A program made the position numbers and the translations under genes. Below the pieces are notes generated by a model that saw nothing but the letters and a program-made list of their open reading frames with translations, made no database searches and was not told where the DNA came from. Shown in pieces: positions 5,615 through 33,704 of a stretch of 64,000 bases of DNA (position 1 is its first letter; each line of letters opens with the position of its first letter). Source of the DNA: Mytilus edulis (Eukaryota); assembly GCF_963676685.1 (NCBI RefSeq), contig NC_092349.1, positions 63,438,924 through 63,502,923 of the forward strand, in the 5' to 3' direction.

Positions 5615-5740
5615 CTCTTCATACACATTAGGTATGTGTGTTTCTGTGTCTGTCATTTTGATCAACCATTCCTCTCCATTCTTTCTTGTTACACCAAAGT
5701 CGTCTTTAAATGTTCTCAATGATATCATATGGAGGGCTTT
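5615..5740 (-). CDS. MVP: Major vault protein, coding exon 4
   Basis: Translation KALHMISLRTFKDDFGVTRKNGEEWLIKMTDTETHIPNVYEE (cf. human [42 protein letters not shown]). The acceptor tcttgcag is the revcomp of 5741-5748. The donor GTATGT is the revcomp of 5609-5614. Confidence 0.85.
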
Positions 5741-6130: not shown

Positions 6131-6481
6131 CTTATCTGTTAGAACATAGGCGTTGACAACATCTACAACTTCTTCATAGGCTCCTGGGAGATAAGCTCCG
6201 GTCTTCTTCACCAGCCATTCCTCACCGGTTACCCTAGCAACACCTTGTCTATCAATAGTCTCCTTCCTAGCCCTCAATCTAATGGCCTGGTTAGGTCTAA
6301 TGACTGTGGCTCTGACAGTCTCCTCAATAACAACCTCTTTCCTTGGGATATATGTTCCTGGTCCTTCAAATAGCCACTCATCCCCAGCTGTTCTCTTTTC
6401 TTCATCATCGTCTTCAAAGTCTAGAATAGCTCTGAGCCGAAGAGCGGAGTTGGCTGCTACCACCTTCAGGGAGGTTACAAC
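6131..6481 (-). CDS. MVP: Major vault protein, coding exon 3 (vault repeat domains)
   Basis: Translation [117 protein letters not shown] contains the hallmark MVP repeat motifs ([31 protein letters not shown]). The exon is 351 nt, phase 0. The acceptor is cgtag and the donor GTAAAT (revcomp of 6125-6130). Confidence 0.9.
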
Positions 6482-7392: not shown

Positions 7393-7588
7393 CTGTTTCA
7401 GTATTTCCCCAGGGTACAGTGGGAAAGGATCCTGTGCCAATCTAATCTCCTGGTCAGCATGTACAAGTTTGGCCTGTCCACTTTCGTCAAAGACAACTTT
7501 ACATTCTTTGTCCTTTAGTACAGGGTTTTCTACGATACAATAATGCCTTGGGGGCACTGTGATCATACGCTCTGGTCCATATACCACT
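7393..7588 (-). CDS. MVP: Major vault protein, coding exon 2
   Basis: The exon joins exon 1 in phase 2 (aa+a = K) and reads [65 protein letters not shown] (cf. human [11 protein letters not shown]...[18 protein letters not shown]). The acceptor tttacag is the revcomp of 7589-7595. The donor GTATGA is the revcomp of 7387-7392. Confidence 0.85.
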
Positions 7589-7981
7589 CTGTAAATATCA
7601 ATGCGCAATATTTGTATCCAGCTTATTACGGTATTGACTTTTAAGAATATATCCTGTCAGATTAATATCTGGTTGAACATGGTCTGGCCTATCTGACAAA
7701 TGAAATGCAAGAAAATCTTGTCATTCCAAAACTTGTTACTAACTAGTATATTTAGTTGTCAGTTCTATGATATTCTAAAAATAAATAGTTTCATATAACA
7801 TTGGGTAATTTTCACTTCAAGTGTACTCTGCCTTTTGGTGTAAACAAAAATCCATAATACTTTTTTCTTTTCTTTTTAAGGTTGTTCTTCTGATGGAATA
7901 GTGTGGGGATTATATGCACCAGAAAATTTATCTAGGCAGACATTCTACTCACGGGAATAAAAAGGCTATAGTTATACTTAC

Positions 7982-8112
7982 TTTTCATTGTCTTGTCTGA
8001 CAAATGTCTGTGGACCAATCTCAAGTCTTGTTACATTGAGGTTCTGGTCTAGAACATGGAGGTAAAAATAAGGAGGGATTCTGTATAGTGATTCGTCTCC
8101 CCGTCTTGACAT
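7982..8112 (-). CDS. MVP: Major vault protein, first coding exon (ATG = revcomp of 8110-8112)
   Basis: Minus-strand translation [43 protein letters not shown] aligns with the N-terminus of vertebrate MVP as I recall it (..[34 protein letters not shown]). The donor GTAAGT is the revcomp of 7976-7981. An acceptor-like tattatttcag lies ~20 nt 5' of the ATG (around 8135), suggesting a separate upstream 5'UTR exon. Confidence 0.85.
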
Positions 8113-8269
8113 GGTGGATGAGGGTCTGTTTAGCTCTGAAATAATAAAAGTTCATTTTAAATTATTGATTTAAAATTCTCGAAGTCTTGTTAACTTCTGA
8201 GCAGAAATTAATAATTTCATAAAGTTTATTTTTAAAAAGTAAAATCACAAAAATACTGAACTTAGAGGA

Positions 8270-8460
8270 AAATCAATTCGGAAAGTCCATAATCACATCA
8301 AAATCATATAACAATACACATCAAAAACGAATGGACAAGAACTGTCATATTCCTGACTTGGTACAGACATTTTCACATTTAGAAAATGGTGGATTAAACC
8401 TGGTTTTATAGCGATAACCCTCTCACTTTGATGACAGTCTCATCAAATTCCGTTATATAT
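8270..8460. repeat. Dispersed repeat family copy (other copies 25330-25650 in opposite orientation, 43115-43270) within 350 bp upstream of MVP ATG
   Basis: aactgtcatattcctgacttggtacagacattttcacatttagaaaatggtggatt (8340-) is the revcomp of ...aatccaccattttctacatttgaaaatgcctgtaccaagtcaggaatatgacagtt (25480-25540). The 25xxx copy ends in a nested hairpin gtcgagcctgcaacttttgttgcaggaagctcgac (25617-25650). Confidence 0.6.
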
Positions 8461-11400
8461 TACATTGATGCGTTAACTAAACAGACACAAAAAATAAAAT
8501 GGTCAGAATATGGGTACATTATTCATCATCGTATAACAATTTTAAAAGGAACAATTTAACACAACACAAAAACATCTATCTACAAACACATTCATTGATT
8601 TGTGTGTCTGACGTCAGAAAATTTTATACGTTGCATAGATTTGTCGTTCAATGTGCATACAAACAATTTTAAAATTTACATAGGCAATGTTAGCATACAG
8701 GGTTAAAAAATCAAAAGTATGTAAGAATAAATTTCAGAAATAGACCGAGATTTAAAATAGTTCAAAAGTTATATAATAGAATTTATAAGAATCCACAAAT
8801 AGTTCATTCCACTACGCGATTGAATGATTTTGACGTTTGTGGTTCAACGTATTTTGAAATTCATAATAGAAATATATCATATTAATGACATAAAATAGAA
8901 CACTATCAGACTTGACGGGATCTCTTAAAGTACAGAGTCACGTTATAAGAACCAAAGAAATACATATGCAATTTTTTTTATAATTAATTTTTTTTGGGGG
9001 GGGGGGGGGGATTGGTAAAAACGACAAACCGTAAGATGCATAGTAAGGTATGACAACTTTGGAAAAGCCAGTTTTCCAAGCACAAAATATGTTACTAGAT
9101 AGACCCCCCCCCCCTTGAAACCATCCACCTACCAATGGAGCAATCTCGTATACAACCATCCGGTATCAAGAAAATGTATTAACCTGTTAAGCCTCAATTG
9201 CAATTAGTGATATTTTCCCTCAAATCCACAATTATGATTTTCAGCAAAGTAAATCCACATCCCGTTAAGATTGATGGATTGCTCTTTACGTATCGTCCAG
9301 TGACAGATAGTTCATGCATGTTTGTGCAAAATCACATTTGGAGGAAGTGATTTAAAATATTGGATTTGTGAAATTGAAGGTTTCTTAGGAATTCTCACTG
9401 TTACATGTATGTGCATTGATTGGTTGTCGGATATGAGGAAATTAAATATTCAATTGAAGGAAGGAAGACGTGTCTTTAGAACCCATTTAGTAAGGATGAC
9501 TTAATATGAGTGGCGTGTTGAAAAGTGCATTTATCAAAATGTGAGATTTTCAATAAAATTAAAAGTTATTGCACAACACAAAATGTCGTCTCATCGATAG
9601 TGTGTGTCGTAACAAGTTGGTTGAATATTACATTCAGCAAAAATTAAGTAAATACAAAGACAAGTCGCAAATCTACAATAATACGGTTTATACTTGTCTT
9701 ATGTACGTATTTAAATCTGTATAATATCGTACCTGAATAAATCTTTACCTACATCTTCATTTATCATGTTTATAATATTTTACTTACCTTATTTATTCAA
9801 TTTACTGCTTGAAACTTAAAAACAAGATCTAAATATAGGAATGACCGACAAATATTCTTACCTGGATAAAAAAAATGCTGACGGTATTGGCTATACCCTA
9901 GCTATGTTGGCTGGATACAAGCCAAACAATTAGATCAATATAAATGTATTAATATACGTGTTCATAACCACTCAGGTGTTTAATTGTTTACATTTAAAGT
10001 ACTTTCAAATTTAACATTTTTCACATTGTTTAAACGAGGAAGTTGCGTTGGTTCTGCATTGATTTAAAAGATACATTGCACGCCCCTGTTTAACATAAAT
10101 TGAAAGTAAATAGTAGATGTATAGTAAATAAGATTACGATAACTGAATAGCATATGTTGTTTTTACCTTATTTAGACAGACATGTGTACCCGGTCATGAC
10201 CAGGCATGACCAAAGACTTTAAGTAATGTTCTAATGTTTCATTCCTTTAATTTTCTGCACATTTTTTTCAATCAGCATTTTAATTTTACTCTGTACATTT
10301 TTAGCAAACCCATTCATTGCAAACCACTCTGGGCCCTTACATTATATACATATATACCCAACAATTACACCCATTACAATATCGAAACACGTTATAAGGG
10401 TTTTATTGAAGAAAAAATTACAGCGAACATGTACATTTCAATTACATACTATATAACTTTTCAATCAACTATAGAGTGTGCTAATCTTCAATGAATATTT
10501 TATCTAGTATCGGTAGGTTATTTAACTCTCGATTTATCTAATAATGTATACTTGTGTATATATATATTTAATCAATAAGATGAGAAATAAGCAAAAATCC
10601 ATAGGATATATTATAGTTACTAAACCTTACCTTTTCAATCAGAGCTGCACGAAGAATAGTCTTATCAAAATAGAAATCTCGAATTAAGTAAATGTTGATT
10701 GAGATTTGCTGACTGTTAGAGTGGTGCAATCGAAAGAAATAGAGTAAAGGCTAAAAATAGAAACTGGGGATTTCACAACCGGATACAAATAATATATATG
10801 CGTCACAATGTTTATTTCAAATGTGAGTTTTACAGTGCTTTTTGTCTCGCCTGGGACGAAATTCTCAGTGTCACTGTGAGATACAAGTGGAATTTACTAT
10901 TTATTTCCTGCGGTGCCGTCTTCACAGCCTGAACTATGTGTTTCAAGCTTAACTTGTTTCAAATGATGTGCTTCAATTATAAATTAAGTGAGGGCTATTC
11001 GCCTCAAAATTTTACTATCCAAATTGAATTTTTCTCATGTTTAAGAAAATCAAAAACTTTATTTAAAAAACGACAATGAAGGTTTATACAATATATTTGG
11101 GAAAACTCTCTGATGAGAATTATATCAATATTATAAATACGGATTTAAGTTAAAAACTAACAGAAAATACATTAATTTTGATCGCCTATTTCACCCTGCT
11201 CATAAGAGGGAGGAGGGCATTTTTACATTTGTTGTTAACTGTTCAACGGACCCTCTATTGCCTCCCCTCTTATATCAGCGATGTGTGAGGGAACGTATTC
11301 AAATTTATTTACTTTTATCAAGTATAAAACTGTCTAATGGGAGGGTGAAATACTAGTAATAATAGACCAATAAACAGATAATAGGGTTTTCATCATGATA

Positions 11401-11799
11401 TGTACCGTAAAATAGTAGCTGTGAAGTTCAATCACCAAATATAAACCAAAATAAAAAGATTTTCCTTTATGCAATATAGAGGCGGAAGATTAATTCCATT
11501 TTGTCATAATGTGTGCACAACTCAGAACGAAAAAGTTTATAGATATTTCTTATACTCTAGTTTTAATTCAATAGTGTCAAGCTATCCAGCAATTCTCATC
11601 CAGATATTCTCTTTATAAAAAGTTATCCTGCAATTGTGTTTGGAATACTACTTGAACGACAATTTTTTTTCCCTTCATAACTCATAGTTTTTGACTATTT
11701 TTGTTGAAAGAACGAATAATAAAGACTAGTTTCTCAATTGTTTGTAAAACAATTGAAAGGTCTTTCCTGTAAAAGTGATGTTTTCTTATTGTACTTTGT

Positions 11800-12330
11800 A
11801 CGACCTTTCGTTTGATATACGACAAGCATACCTTCTGAAACTTTTACACTTAATGACCTCATCCGCCTACATTTTTGAGATCGGAATTATGATGTATGGA
11901 ACAGAGTAGATGAGCTTTCATTTGATAGGTGACAACACCATGTTCTAGAAAGTTTGATTTTTGCACTTAATTACCCTATCCAACTAATTTTTGGAGGTCG
12001 GGAATTTGATATTTCAAATGTACACATCATGACCTATCATTTGATATACAACCCTATCTTAAAAGAACATTTATTTTTTGCACTCAATGACCCCATCCAA
12101 CCCATTTTTGGAAGACGTCAATTTGAAATTTGAAATGTACGCTTTATGTTCTTTCATTTGATATGCGACAACCTTACTATCTGAGAAATTTGAATGTTTT
12201 GCACTAAATGACCCCACCCGTCCCCCTGGGATGAAAAGGGGGTTTAAAATTTTCATTTTTAAGTAGAGTTTATTAAGACCTTCAATTTGATATATCAGAT
12301 GACCCCATTTGACAAAGTGCAAATAATGAT
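11800..12330. repeat. ~125-bp tandem repeat x ~4 (..tttgcact.aatgacc.catcc...tttgatat.cgaca...)
   Basis: Direct reading shows four successive similar units. Confidence 0.7.
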
Positions 12331-12456
12331 GCAATATCAACTATATAAATAGAAGTTATGAAACTTACAAAGTCTATGCAAAACTTGAAAATTTCAAATT
12401 GATTTTTTGATGTTTTTTTTCCATGGAATGTTTTTGGTATTTGGTAAAACATATAA

Positions 12457-12735
12457 GGGAGCTACCATTTGATTTTTATGGGGGCTAGGATGAAAAATGT
12501 TGTCCTGCATTTTTTTTTAGCTGTAATCTCTGTCCTGCCTTTTTATTTTTCACTGTGTTCGGTCCTGTCTTTTTTTTTTTTTAGTTTATCCTGACTTTTT
12601 TTTACCCAAATTGTCGTCCTGACTTTTTTTTTTGCAAGTGTCTCATCCTGCCTTTTTTTTTACTCAAAACTCCTGTCCTGCCTATTTTTTCAAATTTCAT
12701 CCTAGCCCCCCCATAAAAATCAAATGGTAGCTCCC
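12457..12735. mobile_element. PIF/Harbinger-like (Tourist-type) MITE, 279 bp, 39-bp perfect TIRs, TAA target-site duplication (12454-12456 / 12736-12738)
   Basis: The TIR GGGAGCTACCATTTGATTTTTATGGGGGCTAGGATGAAA pairs with TTTCATCCTAGCCCCCCCATAAAAATCAAATGGTAGCTCCC. The interior has ~7 repeats of TCCTG(A/C/T)C + T9-13. The 3-bp TAA TSD is characteristic of PIF/Harbinger (established knowledge). Confidence 0.7.
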
Positions 12736-14385: not shown

Positions 14386-17300
14386 AGTACCTTTGACTTT
14401 TGATACCTCTCCTGAAATTCTCTGTATAGTAATTAAAGTATATATGCATGTTCATAGAGTACATAGAGTACAGATAAACAGAAGGTATAAAAATCGGTAT
14501 TTGGAAAATAGGGGGAGTGCAAAAAAATGTGCCCAATCCCAAAGTACCTTTGACTTTTGATATCTCTCCTGAAATTCTCCAGTCAGTATATTTTTTTTAC
14601 AGTTTACGTACGCTCTATTTCCCCGCGATTTCGCGGGTGTGTTCTAGTAATGTATAAAATGTAGAGCTCGTCAAGAGAAACATTTCATACACAGTATGTA
14701 TGCATCAAACTCTTATCGTTTTCTTAATATGCAAGCTTGAAATTGCAGCGTAATTTGATTTTGCACTCGGTGACCTTTGACCTTGGGTGCATATTGAAGG
14801 TCACGCGAACATAAGATTACTGGTGTAGGTCCCAAGTCTCTATGACTTACGGTTCTCGAAATACAATTTTTCAAAAATTGTGTACAATATTTCAAGGGGA
14901 ATAACTCCTTATAAGGGTTGATAACAAAATGATTGTATACGTTCATTAACATTGCCATATGTTCCTGTACATTTTGCCGTTTTTAAATCGATTCTATCTC
15001 TAATACTTTTTGAGAAAAATGCAAAGGAAAGAAATTGTTTCAAGGGGATATAAATCTCATAGGGGACGATGAAATCCTATTCAGTCTCATATGGTAATAC
15101 ATCATGATGAGATCTACCTATGGTCCAAATAAGGTCATGATATCTTTAAAAAAAAAACGAGGGGGGGGGTCATGTTGAAAAAAGTCAATAAAAGGGAGAT
15201 AACTTCTTAAGGGAATGATGAAATCCTTAACCGGGTCATCTGGTAATACTTCATGATGAGGTCTATCAATGGTCCATATTTGGTCTTCATAGCTTCAACA
15301 GAAACAAGAGGCGGGCATGTCAAACAAATGTTGGAAGAAAAAAAAGAAAAAGAAAAAAAAACATTAGAAAATCAATAAGGTCTTTCCTGGCGTAGAGGAA
15401 AGACAAGGTCTTTCCTCGCGGAGAGGAAAGACCTTAAAAACCAAAGATTTGTATATCTCATTACCAAATTTCTAACTTTAGTTTACAGATTGCTATCTCA
15501 TGTTTTCGGTTTTGTAACTAGCAATTAAAAAAAATCATTTTGGCGATTCAAATATGATAGTATTATCTGTTAAGGTAGCACAATACACAGATTTTATAAC
15601 TCCAACTCCCAAGTTTTAAAATGCTGTAACTTTCTTAATAATGCTTGGAAATTTATAAAAGTGGTAGTTATGGATAGCTAACAGATTACTCTTTCCAATT
15701 AATGCAATGTTAGTTTTATGCAACACATATGTAACCAATTATAATGTTTACTGTGTCTAAAATATTTTTCACCAAATTTCCACTTTCAATTGAAATTAGC
15801 ATAGGTATTCCTAGAGGGTTGATTTTATTATATGTTGTTCCTATGGCCATTATCTACAAAAGGGTGTCTCAGATTTCAGATAGAATGTATAGAACAAATT
15901 TTACACCTAATTGAACATTTACTTCTTTTATGTGTTAAGGATGTTTACACTAATTAGAGATTTATGAGAGAATGGAATACCATAGGGACAATTTGAGACA
16001 CCCTTTTGAAGCCCATGATGTGTTGATTAAGATTTCGTTAAATTTTTCTGTATAGATAAAGAGATGATAGAGCTAAATTCATTCAAGTGAACTGACCGAG
16101 ATTTTGCCACTAATTACGTAATAATTGATTACATAATAATTTCATAATAAAAATATTGCATCCATTTAAAAGATTAATCTTTTATCTATCTATATATACC
16201 TCTTTTATTATTTTGTATGCATTCATAAGAAAGTTACACCATTTTAAAGGTTAGTGATTGGAAGTAAAAAAATCTTTGTATTGTGCTACCTTAAATCATC
16301 ATTTTTATTTGATTCGTATATTATTAACGCCTATTTAACTACATTTGCGATTTTTCAACTCACAAAACGACTAAAACATGTCGAATTTTGATGCAATTGT
16401 TTTTCTCTTGAAATACCAACGTTTGTTAATGTGGTTCATAAATGTTTCTAGTTTCTTGTTTTTTTTATATATAGATTAGACCGCTGGTTTCCCCGTTTGA
16501 ATGGTTTTATATTAATTTTAGAGGCCCTTTAGCTTACTGTTCTGTGTGAGACAAGGCTCCGTGTTGAAAACCGTATAATGGTTTTTCTTTAAAAAAATAC
16601 AAATTGTGACTTGGATGGAGAGTTTTCTCATTGGCACTCATACTACATCTTCTTATATCTAATAAATCATAAAAATGATTTGACTGTTCAGGAAGACGAA
16701 CTAAACACCCGAATAAACCTAGTGCATGTATAGTGAACTGTTCATATGCCCATCAGCCTGAGGGCGTTCCATTTATGTGCATTTTAATTCAAACACAATA
16801 TAAAGTACAAGAAATCGTCAAAATATAAGATATTTTTTGGTTAGTGTTCTTTCTAAATCCTTCTGCAAAAGCTTTCTCTTACACCTTCGTATCTCATCAA
16901 CCTCGTCTTTCATGGTTTTCCAAATTGGAATTTCTGTTTGGATACAATAAGCATTGATGTCAGTCTTTGATTGTCCGTACAAACGATTAACAAGTTAACT
17001 TCTTTCCCCAATACCTCAGACACATACATAAGTCCATATGTTAATTTTTTACATAGTTACCTGTTGAGAAGCGTCATCAACATAGTACTTAATTATGTAA
17101 CACATGTAAAGACGGCGTGCACAAAGTTGACGGCAACGGTTAAATGCGGTTTTAAAAATAGCTTTATACATCCGTGGTAAACATATATTTTAAATGGGAA
17201 GTTTTTTTTATGATAAAATGATTAAAGCTAGCCATTAAAATCCACACAATTAAAAAGGTTATCAAAATTAAACCTATAAAGTATGAAACGAACATGGAGA

Positions 17301-18818: not shown

Positions 18819-19957
18819 CGTTTACTATGGCAAGCCGTTCTCGTCAAAACTATGAATAAACCATTTTTCGAAAAATTTACACACTGAGAATTAAATACTT
18901 CAAAACACACACTGAGAATTAAAAAATACACACTGAGAATTAAAAATTACACACTGAGAATTAAAAATTACACACAGAAAATTAAAATTACACACTAAGA
19001 TTATACAAAAATGAAAAACACACACTGATAATTGAAAATTACACACTGAGATTTCAAAAAGACACACTGAGAATAATATAAATAAACTGAAAACACACAC
19101 TGAGAATTTGAAATTACACACTGAGATTTGTGCGCACTTTTTATGCGCACATATCTAATTAGCATACTTAATCTGAATCTATTACAAGCTTAAAACAACT
19201 AGGGGACAGCACTCAAAAAATGTTTATAAAAAAACTTTAGAAATACAAGAACAAGAAAAATACCCACTTATTCTTAATACAAAATATAACCAAATGGTGA
19301 AAAACTTTATTAAAATTATAAGAAAACATTGGAACAATCTGTAAAAAAACAAAGAATGCAAAATTTTTATTCAAGTGTCTCAATAGCATATAAACGTAAC
19401 AAAAATATAAAAGATTAACTTGCGAAATCAGGGTAACAGTTGGAAGACTTTTCAAAAGGGACCCATGCTTAAACGGTTTAAAGTAGAAAAAAATCCCGAT
19501 ACACTGGTAGTAATGATCTGAATTATAGGCAACAAACTTATGAATATGAGCGATGTTAAGTCTTGAAATTTATTACGACTGTTGGTTGAAGGAATCGCAT
19601 TTCATTATAATGACAAGAGTTCTTGAGATCAAGATATTAATCTGTTGAATTATTCATTTCATGAATATTCATTAGTAATTTGCATATTAATCTCAGTGTG
19701 TATTTTTGAAATCTCAGTGTGTAATTAAGAATTCTCAGTGTGTGTTTTTCAATTTATTTCATCTCAGTGTGTCTTTTTAAAATCTCAGTGTGCAATTTTG
19801 AATTATCAGTGTGTATTTTTTATTCTTTTAAATCTCAGTGTGTAATTTCGATTTATCAGTGTGTTATTTTAGGTTTTAAAATCTCAGTGTGTATTTTTTT
19901 TTCGAAAAAAGGGTTTAAGCATAGTTTTGACGAGAACGGCTTGCCATAGTTTACTAT
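18819..19957. mobile_element. Foldback-like element: ~310-bp inverted arms (18819-19129 / 19688-19957) made of ~20-bp sub-repeats (acacactgagaattaaaaatt)n, ~560-bp unique middle
   Basis: The left arm gtttactatggcaagccgttctcgtcaaaactatg...(cacactgagaatt..)x11 is the revcomp of the right arm (aatctcagtgtgt..)x9...catagttttgacgagaacggcttgccatagtttactat. Confidence 0.7.
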
Positions 19958-21751
19958 CGGAGGGTCACAATTTCAGCAGATAAGACACAGAACTGTTGAG
20001 ACAAGATATCAATTTTTTTAACCAAACAATCTATATCCTCATCTATGAAAGAACAAATGACTTATTGTTTTAGACAAAACCCATCTGGTATCAAGGACTT
20101 TTTGGTTTGACTTCTATCCAAGTACTTTTAACATGCGACTTCAATGATTTTACAGAAGTCCATGATGTTGTTACCACCTGACATAACAAACTGGTACACA
20201 CTATACTTATATATGGCAAAAATATATCAAACACTATTTTACAATTGCCGATCGCCCACAAAACCAGATAGACACTGGATTTTATTATAATCTATCATTA
20301 ATACACATAATATTTACACATAATATTTTATGCAAATAGTATCTATGAATTGAAAAAAAATTACTCTGTCATAAACGAATCCGCCGGCCAGGAAAAATCA
20401 ACAACCAAGTTCACTGGTGTCAACGTGATAATCGTAACTGCAATAACGATCATCCCAATATGGCGGACACAAATTTAGGAAGTTACCTTAGTCGATATGG
20501 AAACCTGTGTTCAAACCCAAATGCTCGGAAGATCGTCTCGAGAGGTGAACATTGGACAGTACTGAAAAATAGCTTATGTTTACATAAACAAAATGTCAAC
20601 AAAATGTGTACTAGTAAACAAAATACCAATATATACATGTAGTACAAAACAAGAAAAATCAAACAATAATGAACCAACATTAAACTGAACTTAACCAGTT
20701 CGAAGTTGGCGAAATAATGGTTTAATAGGGAAATTAACCCGCTAAAATGACCACTCACGTGATACTACAATTGATATCATGTGTCCATACATATACATTT
20801 TGTATTTGAAAGACCCGTTAGTACCATAATTTTCCTCTATACTTCGAAACGCGGAAAATTATAAGAACAATTTGGTTGAATCACAGACGTCATACATGTG
20901 TTTTATGTAGGGCGAACTTGCAACCAAACAGGCAAATACATTGGCCACACATTACTGGTGATGAACTTCTCAGGATAATATAATAATACTTTTTAAATTT
21001 CAAAATATCGTTCAATTAATGTCAACAAGGCAGGGACACGTCGCTTTCAGTGATTATTTGTAATGGGAATCTTAATTATTTCTTTATGCCAGCATAATGG
21101 TTCCGGTCAAATTGGCGTTAACCCGATAGAGAGTAACATGTTTTAGTTTGACAAAGAGCTTGTCTTGATACCTGTGAATACTGTAAATCACTGGTTATTG
21201 TTGGTGGTACAAGTACAAAAAATGAGTAATTTTGTATCTGCATCCTTTGTGTCATTCTGTAGTAGTAGAGACGGTTTAGTTTTAGGCACCCCAAAAACGC
21301 AGGGCGAGAGGGCGCAGCCAAATATGGCCAACACCCGCCCCTTTATCGAAACGTCCCCTCCGGCTGACCAAATATGGTCAGCTGACTAGGACGACACAAT
21401 ATGACTCATAAGTCCATCGTTCGTAATTACGCTCAGTTGGAATGACTCATATCCACAAATAAGGTAAGAACGTTACAATATGACTGGTCAGACGTGACTC
21501 ATGTTGATCGGGGATAATTCAAAAACGGAAGGGTGATATCCATATACGGACATGTATCGAATCAACCAATGGCAAAGACGGAACGAAAGTATTGTTTTAT
21601 GCAACCACAAAAACGCAAGGCGCTAAGACGCTGACGTCATATGAACAGTATGACTCACGTAGATCTTTGCCAATTCTAGTATGAAGGGCTATATATCAAA
21701 ACGGAAGCACCAGATGTCGGATTATGACTCTTGGACCACCATATGATGAAT

Positions 21752-22078
21752 TCCATATATGGAAAGCGACCACAATACCCTATGACCATATATGGAAATT
21801 ATGACCAAATTTGGTAAGAACCTTATTTTCACTCAAAATAAACATACATGACCATATATGGAAATCGACAAAACAACCTATGACCATATATGGAAATCAT
21901 GACCAAATTTGGTAAAAACCTTATTTCCGTTGAAAAATCAAAATAAAATACATGACCATATATGGAAACCGACCAGATACCCTATGATCATATATGGAAA
22001 TGATGACCAAATTTGGAAAAAAACTTTTATTTTCACTCCAAAATCAAAATAAACATATATGACCATATATGGACAGCA
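21752..22078. repeat. ~110-bp tandem repeat x3 carrying perfect CArG boxes (CCATATATGG), left arm; followed by two CACGTG-containing 98-bp repeats (22079-22200)
   Basis: The unit catgaccatatatggaaatcgac..ccctatgaccatatatggaaatcatgaccaaatttggtaa.aaccttatttt.c is repeated. CCATATATGG occurs ~7 times. aggtcacgtgatcgtatcgaggaac occurs twice. Confidence 0.8.
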
Positions 22079-22325
22079 GGTCACGTGATCGTATCGAGGA
22101 ACGTTAACTCTGGTACAAAACAAGGGAAGCAACTCTGTATATATATCTCTCGTGGAGTGACAATTCAACGAGGCAAGGTCACGTGATCGTATCGAGGAAC
22201 TCTGATACAAAAAAGGATAGCAACTCTTCATGATGTGAGCATCAATCACCGATTAATCGTATCGTGTTCGGGGCAAATAGAAAAAATACCAACACAGATG
22301 TCAGTTTCATATATATTTATTACAT

Positions 22326-22766
22326 TCATTCGTACAATGCAAGCAGTTTGTCGTCGTTACTCATCGAGTCTCTAGACGAAAAATCTTTCACAATGTCTTC
22401 CATGCTAATGTTTCTATATCTCATCTTCACGAAATGTACACAATAGAGTCCGCATGTATCGGATGATCCCTGTTGCACTTGAGTCGTACTGAATCTGTAT
22501 TGAGGTCCATTGGCGATGAGCACGTTCCTGAAGCGACGAAGGTAATACTCCGGAGAACGTCCGAACGAATCGAAAAATTCGACGGGTCCCTCTCGCGGGA
22601 AGTGGAACGCCACCCAGTGAATGCGCTTGTCGTCGCAGTCGTCCGTGTTGACGACGAAACTGCGGGGCCTGTTCGAGACTTCATCCGGCAGTTCATCGAC
22701 ACAACACACGGTCGCCGGCAGGTCTTCGAGATAACACTCCAGTTCGTATCCGAAGGTTCCCTCCAC
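22326..22766 (-). CDS. Adenain-like (peptidase C5, adenovirus/Polinton-type) cysteine protease domain ORF, left palindrome arm
   Basis: The 146-aa ORF MEGTFGYELECYLEDLPATVCCVDELPDEVSNRPRSFVVNTDDCDDKRIHWVAFHFPREGPVEFFDSFGRSPEYYLRRFRNVLIANGPQYRFSTTQVQQGSSDTCGLYCVHFVKM... matches adenovirus protease motifs recalled from memory. These are the catalytic His (GGVHWMAFAW ~ RIHWVAFHF), the Asp/Glu region (LFEPFG ~ FFDSFG) and the Gln...Cys region (QSVQGPNSAACGLFCCMFL ~ TQVQQGSSDTCGLYCVHFV). The ORF is GC-rich and intronless, in an AT-rich setting. Confidence 0.75.
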   Translation of the reverse strand: MEGTFGYELECYLEDLPATVCCVDELPDEVSNRPRSFVVNTDDCDDKRIHWVAFHFPREGPVEFFDSFGRSPEYYLRRFRNVLIANGPQYRFSTTQVQQGSSDTCGLYCVHFVKMRYRNISMEDIVKDFSSRDSMSNDDKLLALYE

Positions 22767-23005
22767 GCCGTCGTCTTCCGTTCTGCATCGTTTGGCGGAT
22801 GGTTCTTCGCCACAGTCCCTATCTTGATGGATCTCAAGTCAATGACTTGTTCACGGAAGGATCGCATCATCGGAACCTGTCGGTGTTGGCTGTGAATCAG
22901 AACCTGTATTTCGGGAAGGATCCGACTCAGAGAAGAAACTGTCACTACCTGGTCCTCTTCGACAATCCAGTCGATCGCCAGCCCGTCGCCACGCTAGGTA
23001 GACAG

Positions 23006-23774
23006 ATGTATCCGAGTCAGAGACACCTCTTGATGCAAACGTTCCGAGAGGCCACGAGGAGACCCTTCGGATACCTTGTGGTGGATCTGAAGGCCGCTAC
23101 ACCCGAACACTTGAGATTACGTAGCGACGTCTTGGGCGGAGGCGAGGACGACGCCGAAGCCGAGGACGAAGACGTCGATTCCACCGGAAGCGAATCGAAC
23201 ACCATGGAATTCGAGGAAGAAGACGTCGGAAGCGAATCGGACCTGATGGCTTGCCGCGCATGCGGACTGGTATTTGCGCACGTCCGGGGACTTGAGATCC
23301 ATCAAGAGAGGGACTGTGGCGAAGAACCATCCGCCAAACGATGCAGAACGGAAGACGACGGCCTGGAGGGAACCTTCGGATACGAACTGGAGTGTTGTGT
23401 CGATGAACTGCCGGATGAAGTCTCGAACAGGCCCCCGCAGTTTCGTCGTCAACACGGACGACTGCGACGGCAAGGGCATTCACTGGGTGGCGTTCCACTT
23501 CCCGCGAGAGGGACCCGTCGAATTTTTCGATTCGTTCGGACGTTCTCCGGAGTATTACCTTCGTCGCTTCAGGAACGTGCTCATCGCCAATGGACCTCAA
23601 TACAGATTCAGTACGACTCAAGTACAACCGGGATCATCCGATACATGCGGACTCTATTGTGTACATTTTGTGAAGATGAGATATAGAAACATTAGCATGG
23701 AAGACATTGTGAAAGATTTTTCGTCTAGAGACTCGATGAGTAACGACGACAAACTGCTTGCATTGTACGAATGA
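23006..23774 (+). pseudogene. Second copy of the adenain-like protease gene (right arm), with acidic N-terminus and C2HC finger; frame broken by +1 C in a C-run (23432-23436)
   Basis: Frame A from ATG 23006 reads MYPSQ...GGGEDDAEAEDEDVDSTGSESNTMEFEEEDVGSESDLMACRACGLVFAHVRGLEIHQERDCGEEPSAKRCRTEDDGLEGTFGYELECCVDELPDEVSNRP. The protease domain RSFVVNTDDCDGKGIHWVAFHF...CGLYCVHFVKM...LALYE then continues in the +1 frame to the stop at 23774. The left copy has gcccc where the right has gccccc. Confidence 0.6.
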
Positions 23775-24034
23775 ATGTAATAAATATAAATGAAACTGAC
23801 ATCTGCGTTGGTATTTTTTCTATTTGCCCCGAACACGATACGATTAATCGGTGATTGATGTTCACATCATGAAGAGTGGCTTCCCTTTTTTGTATCACAG
23901 TTCCTCGATACGATCACGTGACCTTGCCTCGTTGAATTGTCACTCCACGAGAGATATATATACAGAGTTGCTTCCCTTGTTTTGTACCAGAGTTAACGTT
24001 CCTCGATACGATCACGTGACCTGCTGTCCATGAC

Positions 24035-24360
24035 CCATATATGGTCATATATGTTTATTTTGATTTTGGAGTGAAAATTAATGTTTTTTTTCCAAATTTG
24101 GTCATCATTTCCATATATGATCATAGGGTATCTGGTCGGTTTCCATATATGGTTATGTATTTTATTTTGATTTTTCAACGGAAATAAGGTTTTTACCAAA
24201 TTTGGTCATGATTTCCATATATGGTCATAGGTTGTTTTGTCGATTTCCATATATGGTCATGTATGTTTATTTTGAGTGAAAATAAGGTTCTTAACAAATT
24301 TGGTCATAATTTCCATATATGGTCATAGGGTATTGTGGTCGTTTTCCATATATGGAATTC
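24035..24360. repeat. Mirror copy of the CArG-box tandem repeats (right arm)
   Basis: This is the reverse complement of 21752-22078 (tttccatatatggtcat... units). Confidence 0.8.
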
Positions 24361-25769
24361 ATCATATGGTGGTCCAAGAGTCATAATCCGACATCTGGTG
24401 CTTCCGTTTTGATATATAGCCCTTCATACTAGAATTGGTAAAGATCTACGTGAGTCATACTGTTCATATGACGTCAGCGCCTTAGCGCCTTGCGTTTTTT
24501 GCGGTTGCATAAAACAATACTTTCGTTCCGTCCTTGTCATTGGTTGATTCGATACATGTCCGTATATGGATATCACCCTTCCGTTTTTGAATCATCCCCG
24601 ATCAACATGAGTCACGTCTGACCAGTCATATTGTAACGTTCTTACCTTATTTGTGGATATGAGTCCTTCCAACTGAGCGTAATTACGAACGATGGACTTA
24701 TGAGTCATATTGTGTCGTCCTAGTCAGCTGACCATATTTGGTCAACCGGAGGGGACGTTTCGATAAAGGGGCGGGGCTTGGCCATATTTGGCTGCGCCCT
24801 CTCGCCCTGCGTTTTTGGGGTGCCTAAAACTGAACCGTCTCTACTACTGTTCGGTCTAATATCGTAAAACGTCTATGCAATTTTTACACTCTTTCAGTGT
24901 TTAATTGAAACAAAGAAATGTCCAAACAAAACCCGGAATGTTCTAGCCCTAATGAAGAGTGGCAATTTTCCTAAGCAGAAAGATTTCTTTTCTTGTGGTG
25001 CAATGATTTGCCTATACAGCAAAATTGGTAAGATATTAGTCTTGTATCTATTGTCCACACAACGCACGATTCCTAGCAAGAATGATCAATGTTTCAATGT
25101 CAGTGTCATGCTCTGAGTCAATTTAACTTTTAACCCAATTTGCTTGTCCTTGGTGTGCACATGATTTTTTTTTCGGTTTATAATTCCCTGCTAGGTTCAG
25201 CCTCGTTTTGGATAAAATTATCCGTCTGATCAACAATGTCGTGAAATGTTTACACTATTTACTGGCTTTGTAATAACACGAGCAACACGACAGGTGCTAC
25301 ATGAGGAGTAGGATATGCTTACCTTTCTGATCACCTGAAATCACTCCTAGTTTTGGATGGGGTTCGTGTTCTTGTACCCCTATTTGTGACATTTTGTCCA
25401 CCCATCATTGTCAATAAAATGGAATTTGATGCAACTGTCGTACAAGTGAGAAGTTTACCGCTATAAAACTATATGTTCAATCCACCATTTTCTACATTTG
25501 AAAATGCCTGTACCAAGTCAGGAATATGACAGTTGTTGATCACTCGTTTGATGTGTTTTATCATTTGATTTTGCCATTTGATTAGGGACTTTCCGTTTTG
25601 AATTTTCCTCAGAGTTCAGTATTTGATTTTTGTCGAGCCTGCAACTTTTGTTGCAGGAAGCTCGACATAGGGATTGTGATCCGGCGACGGCGGCGTTAGC
25701 TAACTTCTTGAATGCTTCATACTTAGTATATGGATGCCTCATGTTACGAAGTTTCCTTCAGTCACATGT

Positions 25770-26870
25770 CCAATGTCCTTGACCTCATTTTCATGGTTCA
25801 GTGACTACTTGAAAAAAGGTTAAGATTTTTTTGTAATGTTAAATTCTCTCTTATTATGAGTAATAGGATAACTATATTTGGTATGTGCGTACCTTGCAAG
25901 TTCCTCATGCCCGTCAAACAGTTTTCACTTGACCTCGACCTCATTTTATGGGTCAGTGAACAAGGTTAAGTTTTGGTGGTCAAGTCCATATCTCAGATAC
26001 TATAAGGACTGTAAGGTGTTCATGTCCAACTGGCAGGTGTCATCTAAATTAATCTTGACCTCATTTTCATTGTTCAGTGATTATAGTTAAGTGTGTTTTG
26101 TTTTGATCTGTTTTTCTTATACTGTATGCAATAGGTCTACTATATTTGGTGTATGGAATGATTGAAAGGTGTACATGTTTAGCTGGCAGGTGTCAGCTGA
26201 CCTTGACCTCATTTTTATGGTTCAGTTGTCTTTGAGTTTGGATCTTTTTCTCTAATACTTATTGCAATAGGTCAACTATATTTGGTGTATGGAAATATTT
26301 TATGATCTATTTGTCAGCCGCATAGGTTTTATTTGACCTTGACCTCATTTTCACGGTTCATTGCTCAGTGTTAAGTTTTAGTGTTTTGGTCTGTTTTTCT
26401 TAAACTATATGCAATAGGTCAACTATATTTGTTTTATGGAAGAATTGTTAGCTGTACATGTCTGCCTCATATGTAAATATAAAAAAGAAGATGTGGTATG
26501 ATTGCCAATGAGACAACTATCCACAAAAGATCAAAATGACACATGGTTCATCTGATAACAACATCATGGACTTCTGTTAAATCATTGAAGTCGCATGTTG
26601 GACGTTAAAAGCACTTTGATAGAAGTTAAACCAAAGCGTTCCTTGAAACCAGATGGTTTTGTTCAAAACAATAAAGTTTTATTTGACCTTGACCTCATTT
26701 TCACGGTTCATTGCTCAGCGTTAAAGTTTAGTGTTTTGGTTTGTTTTTCTTAAACTATATGCAATAGGTCAACTATATTTGTTTTATGGAAGAATTGTTA
26801 GCTGTACATGCCTGCCTGATATGGTTCTTCTGACCTTGACCTCATTTTTATGGTACATTGGTCAATATTT
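25770..26870. repeat. Satellite-like family, ~150-bp units (..gaccttgacctcattttcacggttcattgctcagtgttaagttt...tatgcaataggtcaactatatttg..), x ~7; two near-identical copies at 26330-26470 and 26680-26820
   Basis: Direct reading. An inverted partial array of the same family is at 57940-58320. A SINE-like insertion sits at 26465-26660. Confidence 0.75.
26465..26660. mobile_element. SINE-like dispersed repeat (~190 bp; tail ...tgtgtcattttgatcttttgtggatagttgtctcattggcaatcataccacatcttctt in revcomp)
   Basis: The same tail is at 16560-16640(+), 40600-40700(+), 48990-49080(+) and 44575-44640(-). The head is shared with 20040-20190. Confidence 0.55.
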
Positions 26871-28905
26871 AGTTTTCTTGGTTAAGTTTATGTGACAGTT
26901 GTTATAAAGCTATAAATTTAGGACTATCAAAATAATATCAATGATTGTAAAGAAGGCAAGACATTTCAGCAACTGAGGAATTGACTAAAATTGTGTAAAT
27001 AATAATAACCAGGATATATAGCTTGGACAACTTATTAAAGCAATTGAACTCAAAGTAATTAGCCGTTGCAAAGTGTTGAAGAAGAGATAAATGTGAAAGA
27101 CAAAAATTGCAATTGCCGATGCCATAATACACTCACCTGCTCAAACAAATGATAAACTATTTTTGTATTTTGTAAATAATATGTAATGTATGGTCATTGA
27201 ATAACAATTCTATGGTGGTGTGTATCACTGCTTTTTAAAAACCAAAATCCATATATTATAAATTATTGTACAAGTTATTATAAGTTAATTTTCGTCAAAT
27301 ATTGTACAAATTGTATTTTTTACAGGCACTTTTTCAATTTGTGCAACTTACAACTTGTACATAGTCAAAATACAAATTATAATTTGTACATTTTTTTTGG
27401 TACAATATTTGACAATTTTAATTTGCACAAAATGATAAACTTGAATACAACATATATAAACGTTAACAATTAAATCTTCATGAAATAGTTATCAAAGAAA
27501 ATTATGCTTCGTTAGAATTTAACAATGACTTTTAGCATGTATTCTTTTTTTCTGTATCATCCAGATAACAAGACAAGAATAAAGAAATCAAAACATTGAC
27601 ATATCTAAAACGTTTGAGTAAACGACAATGCACTTAGGACATTTTGTTCATTTCTGTTGAGCAGCAGTTTTATTTCAGCTTTGATCAATCTTTTTTCAAT
27701 TAAATTGTAGCATGAAATTTTAGTACTTAATAGGAACATGATGTTGTTGATGTGTAGAACTAAATCATGCGCATTAACAATGTGTCAGATACGATATATT
27801 TAAGCACCCTAATATAAAAATAAGGGGATGGCGTATTATTGTCAACAATCCATCAGAGGTCAAATCAGGAATATATAGGCGTATAAATGCTGTACCCTTG
27901 AACCAGGAGAAAACAGTCATACCACACGAGACGAAAATCAGACACCAACGGTTTAATAGATAACAATACAATATACGAAAACAAATATGATGGACATGAC
28001 CATATGACAACCACTGAATCACAGGCTCCTAGCATGGACTAGACACATGAAGAATGAGGCAGAGCTTTCTTAATTCTTAGTTACTAGATCTCCAGCAAGG
28101 ATGCAATGAAAAATATATAAAAAAAAATCACATGATAGTCTTAACAAAATATGATGATTGGATATAATTGTTGATGAAACAACTATCTTAGTAACAAGCA
28201 ACAAATCTGTGATAATAAATTAATACATTCTTGAAATTATACACATCTACCATTGCAATCTTAACGCATTTCCACCAGGGCTGTCCAACACTTTGATTAA
28301 AATTTACCCTTTCGTGAATGATGTACGTGCATATGTGGGATTCACAGTTTTGCTGTGAATTCTGAGTATTTTAGTAGACTCTGCATATAAAACAATATAT
28401 AATTAGAGGCTTTTGATGCTGGAACATCAACATATTATCGATAAAGAAATGACAACTCATCAACAAACTCGGGCTTTTAGAAAAGTTAAGAAATCCGATT
28501 GTTCATTGCACGTTGTATATGTTTGATTACAGGACAGAATAAATCAGATCCATACAGATAAAGAGGACAGTTTGGTCAATCTGTCTCGTGCTTTATCCAT
28601 TTTCCTGCATTTTCCTCAGTAACCTACCACAGGCACTTGTTTCTGTCAATGTGGGGTTTACTATCCATACCAGTACAAAAAAACACAAGGTAGCTAACGG
28701 AAACTTTCAATGTGTTCGCTTCAACCAATATTTTTTTAATTTCCCTTGATTTTTTCACAAATAAAAGTACACCAGTCTGTCGGTAATTGATTTATCTTTA
28801 CAATGAAACAACTTTCACGTACCTTGAGAATACCCCTCAAACAGAATAACACACTTCAGATGAAAATTATTGACCTTTTTCCAGACCATTGAATTTGTAA
28901 GGACT

Positions 28906-31392: not shown

Positions 31393-32711
31393 GTAAGTTC
31401 TTTTTATTGGTTATCTTTAAACGTAATTGCTTACATAACAACCAAACATAATTAATAGAAAAAAATCAATATAGTGGTCTGAACAAACGTATTAGAAAAT
31501 TAACTTAGAAACCTGCAGAACGTTCTATTTTGCCGAGAGTCAAATTATAATTCTCCTCTTTGAATGTTTTATTATTTATTTTTTTTTACATTCAGTGAAA
31601 ATTCAAATTTACTGAAAAGTTTGAAAAACATATTAAATAAGAAGCATTTGTGTAATCTTTTACTACAATGTCATGAATAGTTGGTATATAATATTCATAT
31701 ACGAAAACTTTTAACGCCGCCCTAATCATGATGGCTCATGTACAAAATAAACCAGATAAATGCATGGACATTTGACGACAGTTTTGAAGGCAATTTTGAT
31801 TATAAATAATAGATATAAACAACTGGTCGGCATAATCATAAGTCAATCAAGAACATGATATCACAAAGAAAAAGTTTTCCATTGAGACAAAAACACAACA
31901 ACACGATGATGTCATTTAACAGAGTAAATAGAAGATGTATAATTAGATAACCCTGTCCTACGCCAATTCATTTTGTAACTGTATAGTACAATGCTCTATA
32001 GTATACTCAATATTGGATATTGGAATTTTTAAAGACTGGAGGAAAATACCAAAGGGATATTTAAACTCATAAGTCGAAAATGAACTATAGCAATGACGTA
32101 CATGGCAAGACAAAACGACTAAAAAAAATCAAAAAGAAAATCTACAAAACAAAACAGAGAAAACCAAAAACTGAGTCACACGGATCCAACTAAAAACCGG
32201 GATGATCTCAAGTGCTCCGGATGGGTAAGCAGATCCTGCTCCACATGTTGGTCATGCAAGTACGAACCCGGTTATAAGTCTTATTCAGCTGGTCACATTC
32301 AAGGAACAGAGGACGGGATTGACATTACGACATGTTTTAGAGCACACCCCTCGTCACTATTTTGGGTGATAAAGCATCAATGAGTTTAAAATTTCAAATT
32401 GTCAAAATTCGTCGTTTTAGTTCATGAACAGAAAAATACAATAAGAGAATATGCAAATTCATCAAAGGAAAATTTAGTATAAGTTTCTCAGTAAATCAAG
32501 GATGTATGCGATGAGCTGTTTGTAACCAAAAGGGACATTAAAAGATTATACAAGCCGACGTTTCTCAATCGTTTCAAAATTTATCTAAAGAAAATGTAAG
32601 ATATATAGGATTGTTAGGAATCATGTCAGTATCGAAGGTAAAAGTATCCTCTCTAGAAGTCTGTTTAATTTTCGTATTAATTAACATCTATACTGATATT
32701 TCTATTTTTAG

Positions 32712-33308
32712 GCGATTGTGGAGGGAAGTCAGATATAATATTTGCTATTCCTGGGAACGCAGACATTCCGGGGGAAGAATTCTTTCCGTTTGAACGATTT
32801 TTAACCATGCTTACAGATTATTTTCAAATCGACAGAGATAATGTAAATGTTGGTCTGATATTATACGGTAGAGAAGCTGTTGCAATCAGTTGGCCGCAAC
32901 CAATGAAGGACCAAACACAAACGAATACCAGAATAAGCCTTCTTGCGCAAAGAGAATTATACAATGGAAAACTAAAAGGAGCAGCAGATGTCAAAGCGGC
33001 ACTTTACTTAATGCGACAAATGTTCAGAAATCCATCCGGTTATCCTCTGGTACTACCTAGACCCGACACCAAACAAATTGGAGTAATGTTCACCTATGGC
33101 TCAGTTCAGGCAGATATGATCCCCGATGTCATTGCAGCTACAAAACAGTTTAAGGAAGCTGGAATCGACATGTATTCAGTTGGACGGATGCCAAATGGTG
33201 AATGGTTTCCTGAGATAGCCTCTCATAAATGTAATGTTTTCTCAATGGAAAGTTACTCGGAAGGTCTAAGAGGTCTTCTCCCTTATATCGGGAGCAGTAT
33301 ATGCACAG
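32712..33308 (+). CDS. Secreted VWA + chitin-binding protein, exon 2 (von Willebrand factor type A domain)
   Basis: The acceptor is ctatttttag. The exon joins exon 1 in phase 1 (g+gc = G). Translation GDCGGKSDIIFAIPGNADIPGEEFFPFERFLTMLTDYFQIDRDNVNVGLILYGREAVAISW...KQIGVMFTYGSVQADMIPDVIAATKQFKEAGIDMYSVGRMPNGEW has VWA-domain spacing (DIIF..G / VGLILYG / TYGS..D / GIDMYSVG). The donor is cag|GTTAGT at 33309. Confidence 0.75.
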
Positions 33309-33704
33309 GTTAGTTTATTTTTGCATGTATTTTAAATCGATTTTTTATATTAAAAAAAAAATAGACACACATCCTTGTTTTTGTTTTTTGCTATGAATCG
33401 GTACTGTTAATTTTGTTTCGTTGATCATCATCGGAACTTCAATCTGATTTATACATTTTGTGTTTCTTGTTTTCTTTTGTATCCAAATACTTCTTGTAGA
33501 ATTGTATATTTTATAATTGTTTCAAAAAGAAAATTCAGAATAAACAAACAAACTGATATTTGTTCAAAATTTTATATTTTATTTATATACCATGTGTCAT
33601 ATACAAATAGAAAATATGATAAAAAGTAAATCAATAGTCTACAAGACACTACAGACACCCAAAGACATAGCAAGACGAACTCCACCAAAAACTGAGACTG
33701 ACAG

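Follow-up and report, generated by a model that had tools for sequence, protein, structure and literature searches.

A stretch of 64,000 nucleotides of the Mytilus edulis genome (NC_092349.1, positions 63,438,924 to 63,502,923; hereafter the window) consists largely of AT-rich animal DNA (~31% GC) and contains a GC-richer island at 21261-24848 (39-50% GC vs. ~31% in the flanks) that forms a near-perfect palindrome. Its two arms, 21261-22840 and 23289-24848, are 97-98% complementary and enclose a unique centre at 22841-23288. The island begins with AGTAGTAG and ends with CTACTACT, carries an outward-reading adenain-type cysteine protease gene in each arm, and bears beyond each protease gene arrays of CC(A/T)6GG (CArG) boxes and CACGTG E-boxes (Table 1). 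By its end motif, protease, and packaging ATPase, the island is of the Maverick/Polinton kind. The interval 21320-22200, to which a first reading of the bare sequence (the original prediction) drew attention because of these boxes, is the outer non-coding portion of the left arm, and represents the right-end tail, ~1.05 kb from protease stop codon to terminus, of an endogenous Mytilus Maverick/Polinton (adintovirus-like) element. The palindrome resembles an enhancer and is transposon-derived, not a host regulatory region. Of the two possibilities offered by the original prediction, the terminal repeat of a mobile element or virus is therefore borne out by the Maverick ends, the protease in both arms, the ATPase fragment, and the 6-bp duplications of close relatives, with protein binding remaining putative.

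One of the two end motifs of Mavericks is 5'-(AGT)2//(ACT)2-3', and the elements are flanked by 6-bp target-site duplications and possess inverted repeats of 46-1447 bp (Barreat and Katzourakis, PMC8097293). The comparison with Polinton and adintovirus ends that had been proposed, for which a start in 5'-(AGT)2 or (AG)3 was taken as diagnostic, recovered the (AGT)2...(ACT)2 motif in the window (AGTAGTAGAG...CTCTACTACT) and, in identical form, at loci L001-L005, with L006 reading AGTAGTATAG. These loci belong to a sample of relatives, comprising seven genomic loci (L001-L007) and one metagenome contig (L022), that was found through one protein family. Among them, perfect 6-bp duplications enclose L002 (ATTGAT, 6581-12147), L004 (AATTTT, 8269-12480), and L006 (CTAAAT, 1091-11550), and the close relatives have terminal inverted repeats of a few hundred bp, as expected of Mavericks. 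The window copy differs from such elements in carrying the same end twice. Open reading frames (ORFs) for a protein-primed DNA polymerase B or an rve integrase are absent from the 3.6-kb island, which is thus at most a non-autonomous derivative, and no additional ORFs that could encode a major or minor jelly-roll capsid protein occur within it. Without polymerase, integrase, capsid genes, or a target-site duplication, and with both protease copies damaged, the window copy is dead and non-autonomous; no full-length autonomous element of this lineage was recovered among the relatives.

The coding part of the island derives from a single gene. Matches to Peptidase_C5 (PF00770) exceed the curated cut-off in each arm, and the histidine (HWVAF) and cysteine (CGLYC) motifs of the protease are visible in the ORFs. 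The left protease frame is open and lacks an ATG; relative to the upstream frame, the right copy carries a 30-bp deletion and a frameshift that disable it, and an AATAAA signal lies 5 nt beyond the right stop codon, at 23779-23784. The unique centre encodes the C-terminal third of an A32-type packaging ATPase (22841-~23130), followed by an acidic linker and a C2HC finger, in frame with the right-arm protease. Since the central ORF by itself has no Pfam match, its identity as an ATPase rests on homologues. At 100% coverage, the reconstructed ATPase-zinc finger-protease ORF has 95% identity with a 413-aa M. galloprovincialis protein (P0001), the best of 421 matches in a protein search, and an alignment of ten bivalve homologues contains matches to Pox_A32 in 6/10 (best E 9.4e-7), to zf-C2H2 in 6/10, and to Peptidase_C5 in 3/10, which together identify an A32/FtsK-type packaging ATPase, in this family with one C2H2 finger at the N-terminus and a C2HC finger located internally. 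A PDB profile search with the family alignment (A2) returned C2H2 zinc-finger matches only and neither ATPase nor protease structures, an exact look-up of the 295-aa window ORF that spans the junction found it not on record, and a scan of IMG/VR viral contigs with P0005 and alignment A2 gave no relatives. An A32-type packaging ATPase and an adenain together constitute the morphogenesis module of Mavericks/Polintons and adintoviruses.

In this bivalve lineage, unlike other Mavericks, the ATPase, zinc fingers, and protease are combined in one ORF. In Mytilus lineages (P0001, P0005, P0012, and others; window 22841-23774) this single ORF of 413-474 aa combines the ATPase with one or two zinc fingers and with the adenain protease, and matches from Pecten, Pinctada, and Solemya span the zinc finger-ATPase portion only. 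The ATPase gene is always preceded by an ORF of ~140-196 aa with the motif GGQF.VRLP....G.WECALLE..F.P (L001:9206-9796, L004:9458-9976, L006:9138-9569), which has no Pfam match and may be a capsid/penton-type or other core protein of the lineage.

In its structure, the palindrome is the right end of the element duplicated by fold-back, and its mechanism may be reconstructed from the junction. At 22840/22841 the arms abut the 448-nt loop with 2 nt of microhomology and no host DNA between them. The right copy begins midway through the ATPase gene (L001 position 10275) and extends to the terminus, and the left copy is the reverse complement, running from the terminus to L001 position 10725. The arms differ at 22/1218 sites (1.8%) in addition to indels, with 9 and 13 private substitutions, and have in common six derived substitutions against the L002/L003/L022 group as well as the same outer module, seen in no other copy; the common derived substitutions and the private outer module indicate that the arms descend from one molecule. 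L002, from M. galloprovincialis, is an independent palindrome in which arms of ~2.6 kb flank a centre of 586 nt, and its junction lies inside a short inverted repeat, (GGC)n/(GCC)n, that pre-exists ~590 nt apart in the normal element. Short inverted repeats of this type are a classic substrate for fold-back priming. The whole L002 palindrome is bounded by its perfect target-site duplication and was thus integrated as a unit, and the L002 junction recurs at a second locus, L003. In both palindromes two identical ends are therefore inverted around a unique loop.

An incomplete right-end strand, most likely on a linear replication intermediate, would have folded back on itself at the 2-nt microhomology and been copied back out to the terminus, thereby restoring two functional ends. 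The product would be a 3.6-kb molecule with two identical right ends around the 448-nt loop, now a dead genomic copy. Such products resemble the fold-back (snap-back/copy-back) defective genomes of linear DNA viruses, both in having two ends inverted around a loop, here of 450-590 nt, and in the position of the junction, which coincides in the window with a microhomology and in L002 with a short inverted repeat that was already there. They differ in being integrated into the germline, one with a 6-bp duplication and one with its junction at two loci.

The non-coding tail is composed of distinct modules, which were described in part by the original prediction. The outer 160 bp are GC-rich (52% GC) as stated, and the two outer CArG-like sites exist as CCAAATATGG cores, though the ranges given for them were ~2 nt off. 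Only the first ~75 nt of the outer module align with the ends of L003, L004, L001, and L005, the remainder being specific to the window copy. The reported ~110-bp repeats correspond to a genuine tandem array, of which the period is 104 bp and the copy number 3.1. Each unit contains two CCATATATGG(AAA) sites and one CCAAATTTGG site. Each arm holds six perfect CCATATATGG sites (21753, 21786, 21852, 21884, 21956, and 22063 on the left), rather than the seven or so that had been counted; a degenerate TCATATATGG is present once per arm and located at 21988 on the left. There are two to three CCAAATTTGG sites per arm (21805, 21903, and 22007 on the left). Further inward, the pair of 98-bp repeats with a CACGTG E-box is confirmed, as identical 25-mers (AGGTCACGTGATCGTATCGAGGAAC) at 22078-22102 and 22176-22200 that are mirrored at 23900-23924 and 23998-24022. 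The description of the arms as built from such repeats applies to their outer part but not to the inner ~510 bp, which are the protease ORF. Absent from the original prediction are the CCAAATTTGG sites, the four TGACTCA (AP-1) sites and the single TGACGTCA cyclic AMP response element (CRE) of each arm, as well as a GC box, GGGGCGGGG, at ~24768-24776 beside the outermost CArG box of the right arm. The right outer module mirrors the left, with its CRE at 24469, AP-1 sites at 24451, 24608, and 24701, and CCATATTTGG at 24732 and 24782.

A degenerate copy of the terminus (AGACGG...GTTTTATGCAACCACAAAAACGCAAGGCG) is located ~330 nt inside the real end, at 21593-21640 and 24470-24516 in the window and at ~11925-11975 in L003. 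This internal copy sits exactly where the tails of different copies cease to align, which suggests that the outer ~330-bp module was replaced, or was added onto an older terminus.

Table 1. Features of the palindromic island and of its surroundings in the window.
Feature	Position	Strand	Content or evidence
Whole island	21261..24848	.	3.59-kb palindromic non-autonomous Maverick/Polinton derivative with two right ends
Left outer terminal module	21261..21592	+	(AGT)2AG terminus; CCAAATATGG at 21318 and 21368; TGACTCA at 21402, 21443, and 21495
Degenerate internal copy of terminal ~50 nt (gttttatgcaaccacaaaaacgcaaggcg)	21593..21740	+	Followed by CRE TGACGTCA at 21632 and AP-1 TGACTCA at 21651
104-bp tandem array, 3.1 copies	21753..22073	+	Tandem Repeats Finder and unit alignment
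98-bp repeat pair with GTCACGTGAT	22078..22200	+	Two identical 25-mers bracketing TATATATA stretch at 22138
Left-arm adenain-type cysteine protease ORF and end of C2HC finger	22326..22838	-	Peptidase_C5, E 3.8e-6
Unique centre (fold-back loop)	22841..23288	+	Homologous to P0001, P0002, and P0005
Right-arm protease copy	23274..23774	+	Peptidase_C5, E 7.5e-7; reads outward
Right-arm mirror of 98-bp CACGTG repeat pair	23900..24022	-	
Right-arm mirror of 104-bp CArG array	24035..24355	-	
Right-arm mirror of pseudo-terminus and outer module	24356..24848	-	Terminus at 24848
Major vault protein repeats (host exon)	6089-6481	-	PF01505, E 3.6e-37
VWA domain (host exon)	32681-33310	+	E 3.8e-12
Chitin-binding peritrophin-A domains (host exon)	36893-37321	+	E 5.8e-20

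The excess of these motifs over chance, for which a comparison with shuffled background had been proposed, was assessed with 1000 dinucleotide-preserving shuffles of the 1065-bp left tail, and the counts of all four canonical palindromic factor sites exceed it, tentatively so for CACGTG. CC[AT]6GG occurs 11 times against 0.09 expected, a count reached in 0/1000 shuffles, and a single 104-bp unit already holds 3 against 0.02 (0/1000). TGA[CG]TCA occurs four times against 0.14 (0/1000), CACGTG twice against 0.17 (8/1000; both within one duplicated 25-mer), and TGACGTCA once against 0.016 (16/1000). CArG density amounts to 10.3 per kb in the tail vs. 0.17 per kb (10 matches) in the other ~60 kb of the window. 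Among the three diverged 104-bp units, the columns of the CArG cores are variable at 1/30 and other columns at 20/60 (Fisher p=0.001), and the 3' flank GGAAA of the cores is also kept between units. The MEF2 consensus YTAWWWWTAR has no match in the window tail; one was seen by eye in L006. The original prediction named a common genome-wide satellite as the finding that would speak against it; in the window and seven loci (~210 kb), CCATATATGG is instead confined to these tails bar one single site. A metagenome scan with the 18-mer ATGACCATATATGGAAAT gave 35 matches, of which 34 are attributable to chance and one, L022, is related and has the same context.

Comparison among the relatives separates a shared tail from more variable ends. 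L002, L003, L004, and L022 have the same tail past the protease stop codon, with E-box repeats and then the 104-bp array, as far as window position 24516/21593, beyond which they carry a different outer ~330-bp module followed by a final ~60 nt that is again the same. Five copies agree in the structure of the array and in its copy number. The CACGTG E-boxes are kept in these four relatives, whereas L001 has one and L005 and L006 have none; the tandem array is absent from L001, L005, and L006. The tails of L005 (M. coruscus) and L006, in which the ATPase-protease proteins share 52% and 54% identity, respectively, with the query, are unalignable past the first ~75 nt, yet they contain several CArG/MEF2-like boxes and TGAGTCA in the last ~350 bp; of the two, only L005 has TGACGTCA and GGGGCGGGG. 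Positions that are invariant over nine ends lie within the first 36 nt. The window, L003, and L004 each have a CArG box at nt 58-67, counted from the terminus, and near-matches occur in L001 (ACAAATATGG, nt 58) and L005 (CCAATATATGG, nt 60); the box is usually followed by a GC box (~73-81) and a CRE (~89-96). The only 8-mers common to the tails of all five lineages compared are CAAATATG and AAATATGG, a result matched by 0/300 shuffle sets; the 9-mer CAAATATGG recurs in non-repeated parts of the tails in 5/5 lineages, and ATGACTCA is common to 4/5. Of the bZIP half-site ATGAC, with ~1 expected per ~450 nt, the tails of the window, L003, L004, and L001 hold 6-10 copies, that of L005 three, and that of L006 one. 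Several motif sites in L003 and L005 carry a ATGCCCATAT flank.

The arrangement of a complete element is provided by L004 (M. galloprovincialis UYJE01005831.1, 8269-12480), which is 4.2 kb long, has an inverted repeat of 199 bp, and encodes intact a CARD protein (PF00619, E 5e-11), a TBP-like protein (PF00352, E 4.7e-13), a 172-aa unassigned protein, and the zinc finger-ATPase-zinc finger-protease. Polymerase, integrase, and capsid genes are absent while its ORFs are intact, and L004 may accordingly depend on helpers, as a satellite of Mavericks, instead of being a decayed copy. In this one complete element, the E-box repeats and CArG array are found at the right end only, between the protease and the right inverted repeat, which defines the array as a right-end sub-terminal region outside the inverted repeat proper; its mirror image in the window is due to the palindrome. 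The left inverted repeat of L004 carries the terminal sites and lies directly upstream of the first ORF.

Two further observations concern the relatives. In L002, a ~450-bp insertion (7064-7515) interrupts the CArG array of the left arm at the first CCATATATGG, and the right arm is without it. A scallop relative, L007 (Mizuhopecten yessoensis), spans ~8.3 kb, encodes a zinc finger-ATPase and a 1274-aa protein, and has inverted repeats (8459-8706 and 16527-16773) made of GAGGGA(C/T), so that different lineages bear different repeated words in their ends.

Taken as a whole, the locus is best explained as the right-end tail of a Maverick, turned into a palindrome by fold-back, in which the arrays would serve as a host-factor-responsive enhancer/promoter, a reading to which we assign a probability of about 0.55. 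The arrays are most likely cis-acting protein-binding sites that would form a compact enhancer/promoter for host factors. SRF/MADS proteins would bind CC(A/T)6GG, Sp1 would bind GGGGCGGGG, bZIP factors of the AP-1 and CREB/ATF types would bind the ATGAC-type sites, and bHLH-ZIP factors of the USF/MITF/Myc type would bind GTCACGTGAT, through which transcription of the element, and possibly its origin activity, would be coupled to mitogenic or stress signalling. The assignment to SRF/MADS and bHLH-ZIP factors made by the original prediction is plausible, and gains weight from conservation and from the AP-1, CRE, and GC-box sites found alongside. The excess of CArG boxes over chance is accompanied by constraint on their core columns, and this conservation, the fixed position of the terminal box, the words held in common by divergent lineages, the excess of ATGAC, and the placement of the sites in the left repeat of L004 point to function.

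Several observations weigh against this explanation. The sites were assigned to host factors by consensus match only, no ORF reads inward from the 104-bp array or the E-box repeats, which are located downstream of the protease, and the fixed distance of the terminal CArG box and the one-ended array fit a role in replication or packaging at least equally well. The scallop relative lacks a CArG box and carries other repeats in its inverted repeat, making the motif set specific to the lineages described above, and the window and L003 tails are partly homologous, so that the comparisons are not all independent. As to the element itself, the window copy has no target-site duplication (left flank TTCTGT, right flank GTTCGG), and shifting by 1-2 bases yields as best candidate TTCTG vs. 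TTCGG, which is unconvincing.

A bidirectional enhancer/promoter of divergently transcribed genes, the other possibility raised by the original prediction, was rejected. Both protease ORFs point towards the arrays and run outward, which places the arrays 3' of them, past AATAAA; the occurrence of the arrays at one end only in L004 likewise argues that they are not a bidirectional promoter for the flanking ORFs, and their symmetry in the window stems from the fold-back.

An auxiliary replication origin is an unlikely alternative, favoured by the fixed position of the terminal CArG box and by the reiterated AGT terminus. The sites would in this case serve end recognition: either host factors or the element's own terminal-protein/polymerase or integrase complex would bind the CArG box, GC box, and CRE near the terminus, and protein-primed initiation or integration would thereby be stimulated. 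The inner arrays would have arisen by amplification of this site. NFI and Oct-1 sites in the inverted terminal repeat (ITR) of adenovirus stimulate the initiation of replication in a comparable manner, and the reiterated terminal trinucleotide of adenovirus (CATCATCA), at which a jumping-back mechanism operates, has a counterpart in AGTAGTAG. The island thus shows both the terminal reiteration and the conserved extreme-end core of an adenovirus-type origin; its terminal ~40 nt are conserved across lineages, and the CArG box is fixed in three tails and nearly so in two more, with the GC box and CRE next to it. An origin element is, however, needed at both ends, and the 104-bp array is 490-810 nt away from the terminus and, in L004, confined to one end. 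Moreover, the ends of L002 have lost the box at nt 58 and yet are flanked by a perfect target-site duplication.

We likewise judge it unlikely that the arrays are a packaging signal, in which regularly spaced CCATATATGGAAA and CCAAATTTGG sites at the right end would be recognised by the zinc-finger-fused A32-type ATPase, and fold-back molecules with two right ends would be defective genomes that can still be packaged. The adenovirus analogue would be the one-ended A-repeat domain beside the ITR, and a one-ended array adjoining the terminal repeat is what L004 displays, its array lying just inside the inverted repeat and next to the gene of an ATPase that bears an N-terminal C2H2 and an internal C2HC finger. 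Two independent fold-back derivatives also keep the right end, one of them integrated as a unit, but a search with the ATPase-protease protein finds right-end derivatives only, and owing to this sampling bias the retention of the same end in both carries no weight. The packaging role further requires coincidence, because CArG, AP-1, CRE, and E-box sites are all canonical sites for host factors; L005, L006, and L001 do without the tandem array, and neither capsid genes nor virions are known for this lineage.

A more far-reaching proposal, which we regard as decidedly unlikely, unites these two roles with the origin of the palindromes. The array would be a packaging and/or replication enhancer read by the zinc-finger ATPase or by host SRF, and the double-right-end palindromes would be genomes of the defective-interfering type that arose by fold-back while an extrachromosomal Maverick underwent protein-primed replication, were propagated, and were then inserted by its integrase. 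Two independent junctions, one palindrome with a perfect 6-bp duplication, and one junction present at two loci form the observations behind it. If true, the sequences themselves would attest that Mavericks of mussels replicate as linear viral genomes and give rise to parasites of their own.

It is improbable that the arrays are neutral, that is, that the 104-bp and 98-bp repeats are products of slippage or unequal crossover in a transposon tail and the motifs incidental to an AT-rich palindromic unit. Tandem repeats are indeed common in the sub-terminal regions of transposons, the array is restricted to one lineage, and much of the motif count consists of copies of one unit. Against this, one unit by itself contains three CArG sites where 0.02 would be expected, the cores are conserved while the spacers diverge, CAAATATGG is found in non-repeated parts of the tails of all five lineages, and the structure and copy number of the array are the same in five copies.

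Very improbable, finally, is any origin of the palindrome other than fold-back: although Maverick inverted repeats can reach 1.4 kb (PMC8097293) and the window copy is not flanked by a duplication, the internal deletion of an element with ~1.6-kb protease-bearing inverted repeats is contradicted by the short repeats of L004 (199 bp) and L006 (124 nt detected), each with a single protease gene, and by the normal one-way gene order of L022 and L001; two truncated head-to-head insertions are contradicted by the direct junction of arm and loop at microhomology without host DNA, and by the sister relationship of the arms; and an assembly artefact, such as a read hairpin, is rejected on account of the 1.8% divergence and indels between the arms.

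Returning to the host-factor reading, its closest parallels are found in viral control regions. The major immediate-early enhancer of human cytomegalovirus (HCMV) and the ITR/E1A enhancer of adenovirus couple transcription to host signalling. The motifs of the former include CREB TGACGTCA, AP-1 TGA(C/G)TCA, SRF GCCCATATATGG, and Sp1 GGGCGG sites (PMC13322095). The mussel tail resembles this enhancer and c-fos-type immediate-early promoters in its dense and partly repeated cluster of TGACGTCA, TGA(C/G)TCA, CCATATATGG, and GC-box motifs within a DNA virus-like genome; it differs in that no NF-kB sites were seen in it, in the location of the array at the genome end and downstream of the nearest ORF, and in its mollusc host. 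With adenovirus it has in common the reiterated terminal trinucleotide, putative host-factor sites at fixed distances, ATF/CRE and Sp1 sites in the terminal repeat, a one-ended motif array just inside it, and a homologous protease and packaging ATPase. CArG boxes take the place of NFI and Oct-1 sites, however, TTTG-N8-CG A-repeats are lacking, and the element integrates with a target-site duplication. In the literature searched (Maverick/Polinton in bivalves, adintovirus ITRs, and CArG in transposon ends), no description was found of a CArG/AP-1/CRE/E-box vocabulary in Maverick ends, nor of fold-back double-end derivatives integrated with a duplication.

Mavericks/Polintons are thought to be integrated viruses, and to our knowledge little is established about what activates them or about their free linear replication in animals. 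Clustered and conserved at the terminus, the putative SRF, AP-1, CREB, Sp1, and E-box sites would offer a testable hypothesis of activation, namely by mitogenic or stress signalling as for herpesvirus immediate-early enhancers, in a mussel host whose stress, neoplasia, and mass mortality matter in practice. The double-end derivatives formed by fold-back, in turn, are a structural trace of element copying, and they show that mini-elements bearing the same end twice can be mobilised in trans.

Apart from host exons (Table 1), the surroundings of the island contain further repeats. Tandem repeats of 21 bp (AATCTCAGTGTGT-type) form two inverted blocks (19002-19129 and 19666-19899) ~600 nt apart, a foldback structure, like that of a miniature inverted-repeat transposable element, 1.3 kb to the left of the island. 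An inverted repeat of 52 nt (20130-20181/26548-26599; 92% complementary) brackets the island at a distance of 6.4 kb, and could represent either the ends of an older transposon hosting the Maverick derivative or two copies of an interspersed repeat. A repeat family (…GCTCGACATAGG…TGACCTCATTTTCATGGTTCAGT…) found at 25630-26900 in the window and at L004:12880-13180 lies 0.4-0.8 kb beyond the right end in both; it is probably an abundant Mytilus repeat, and its common position may be coincidental.

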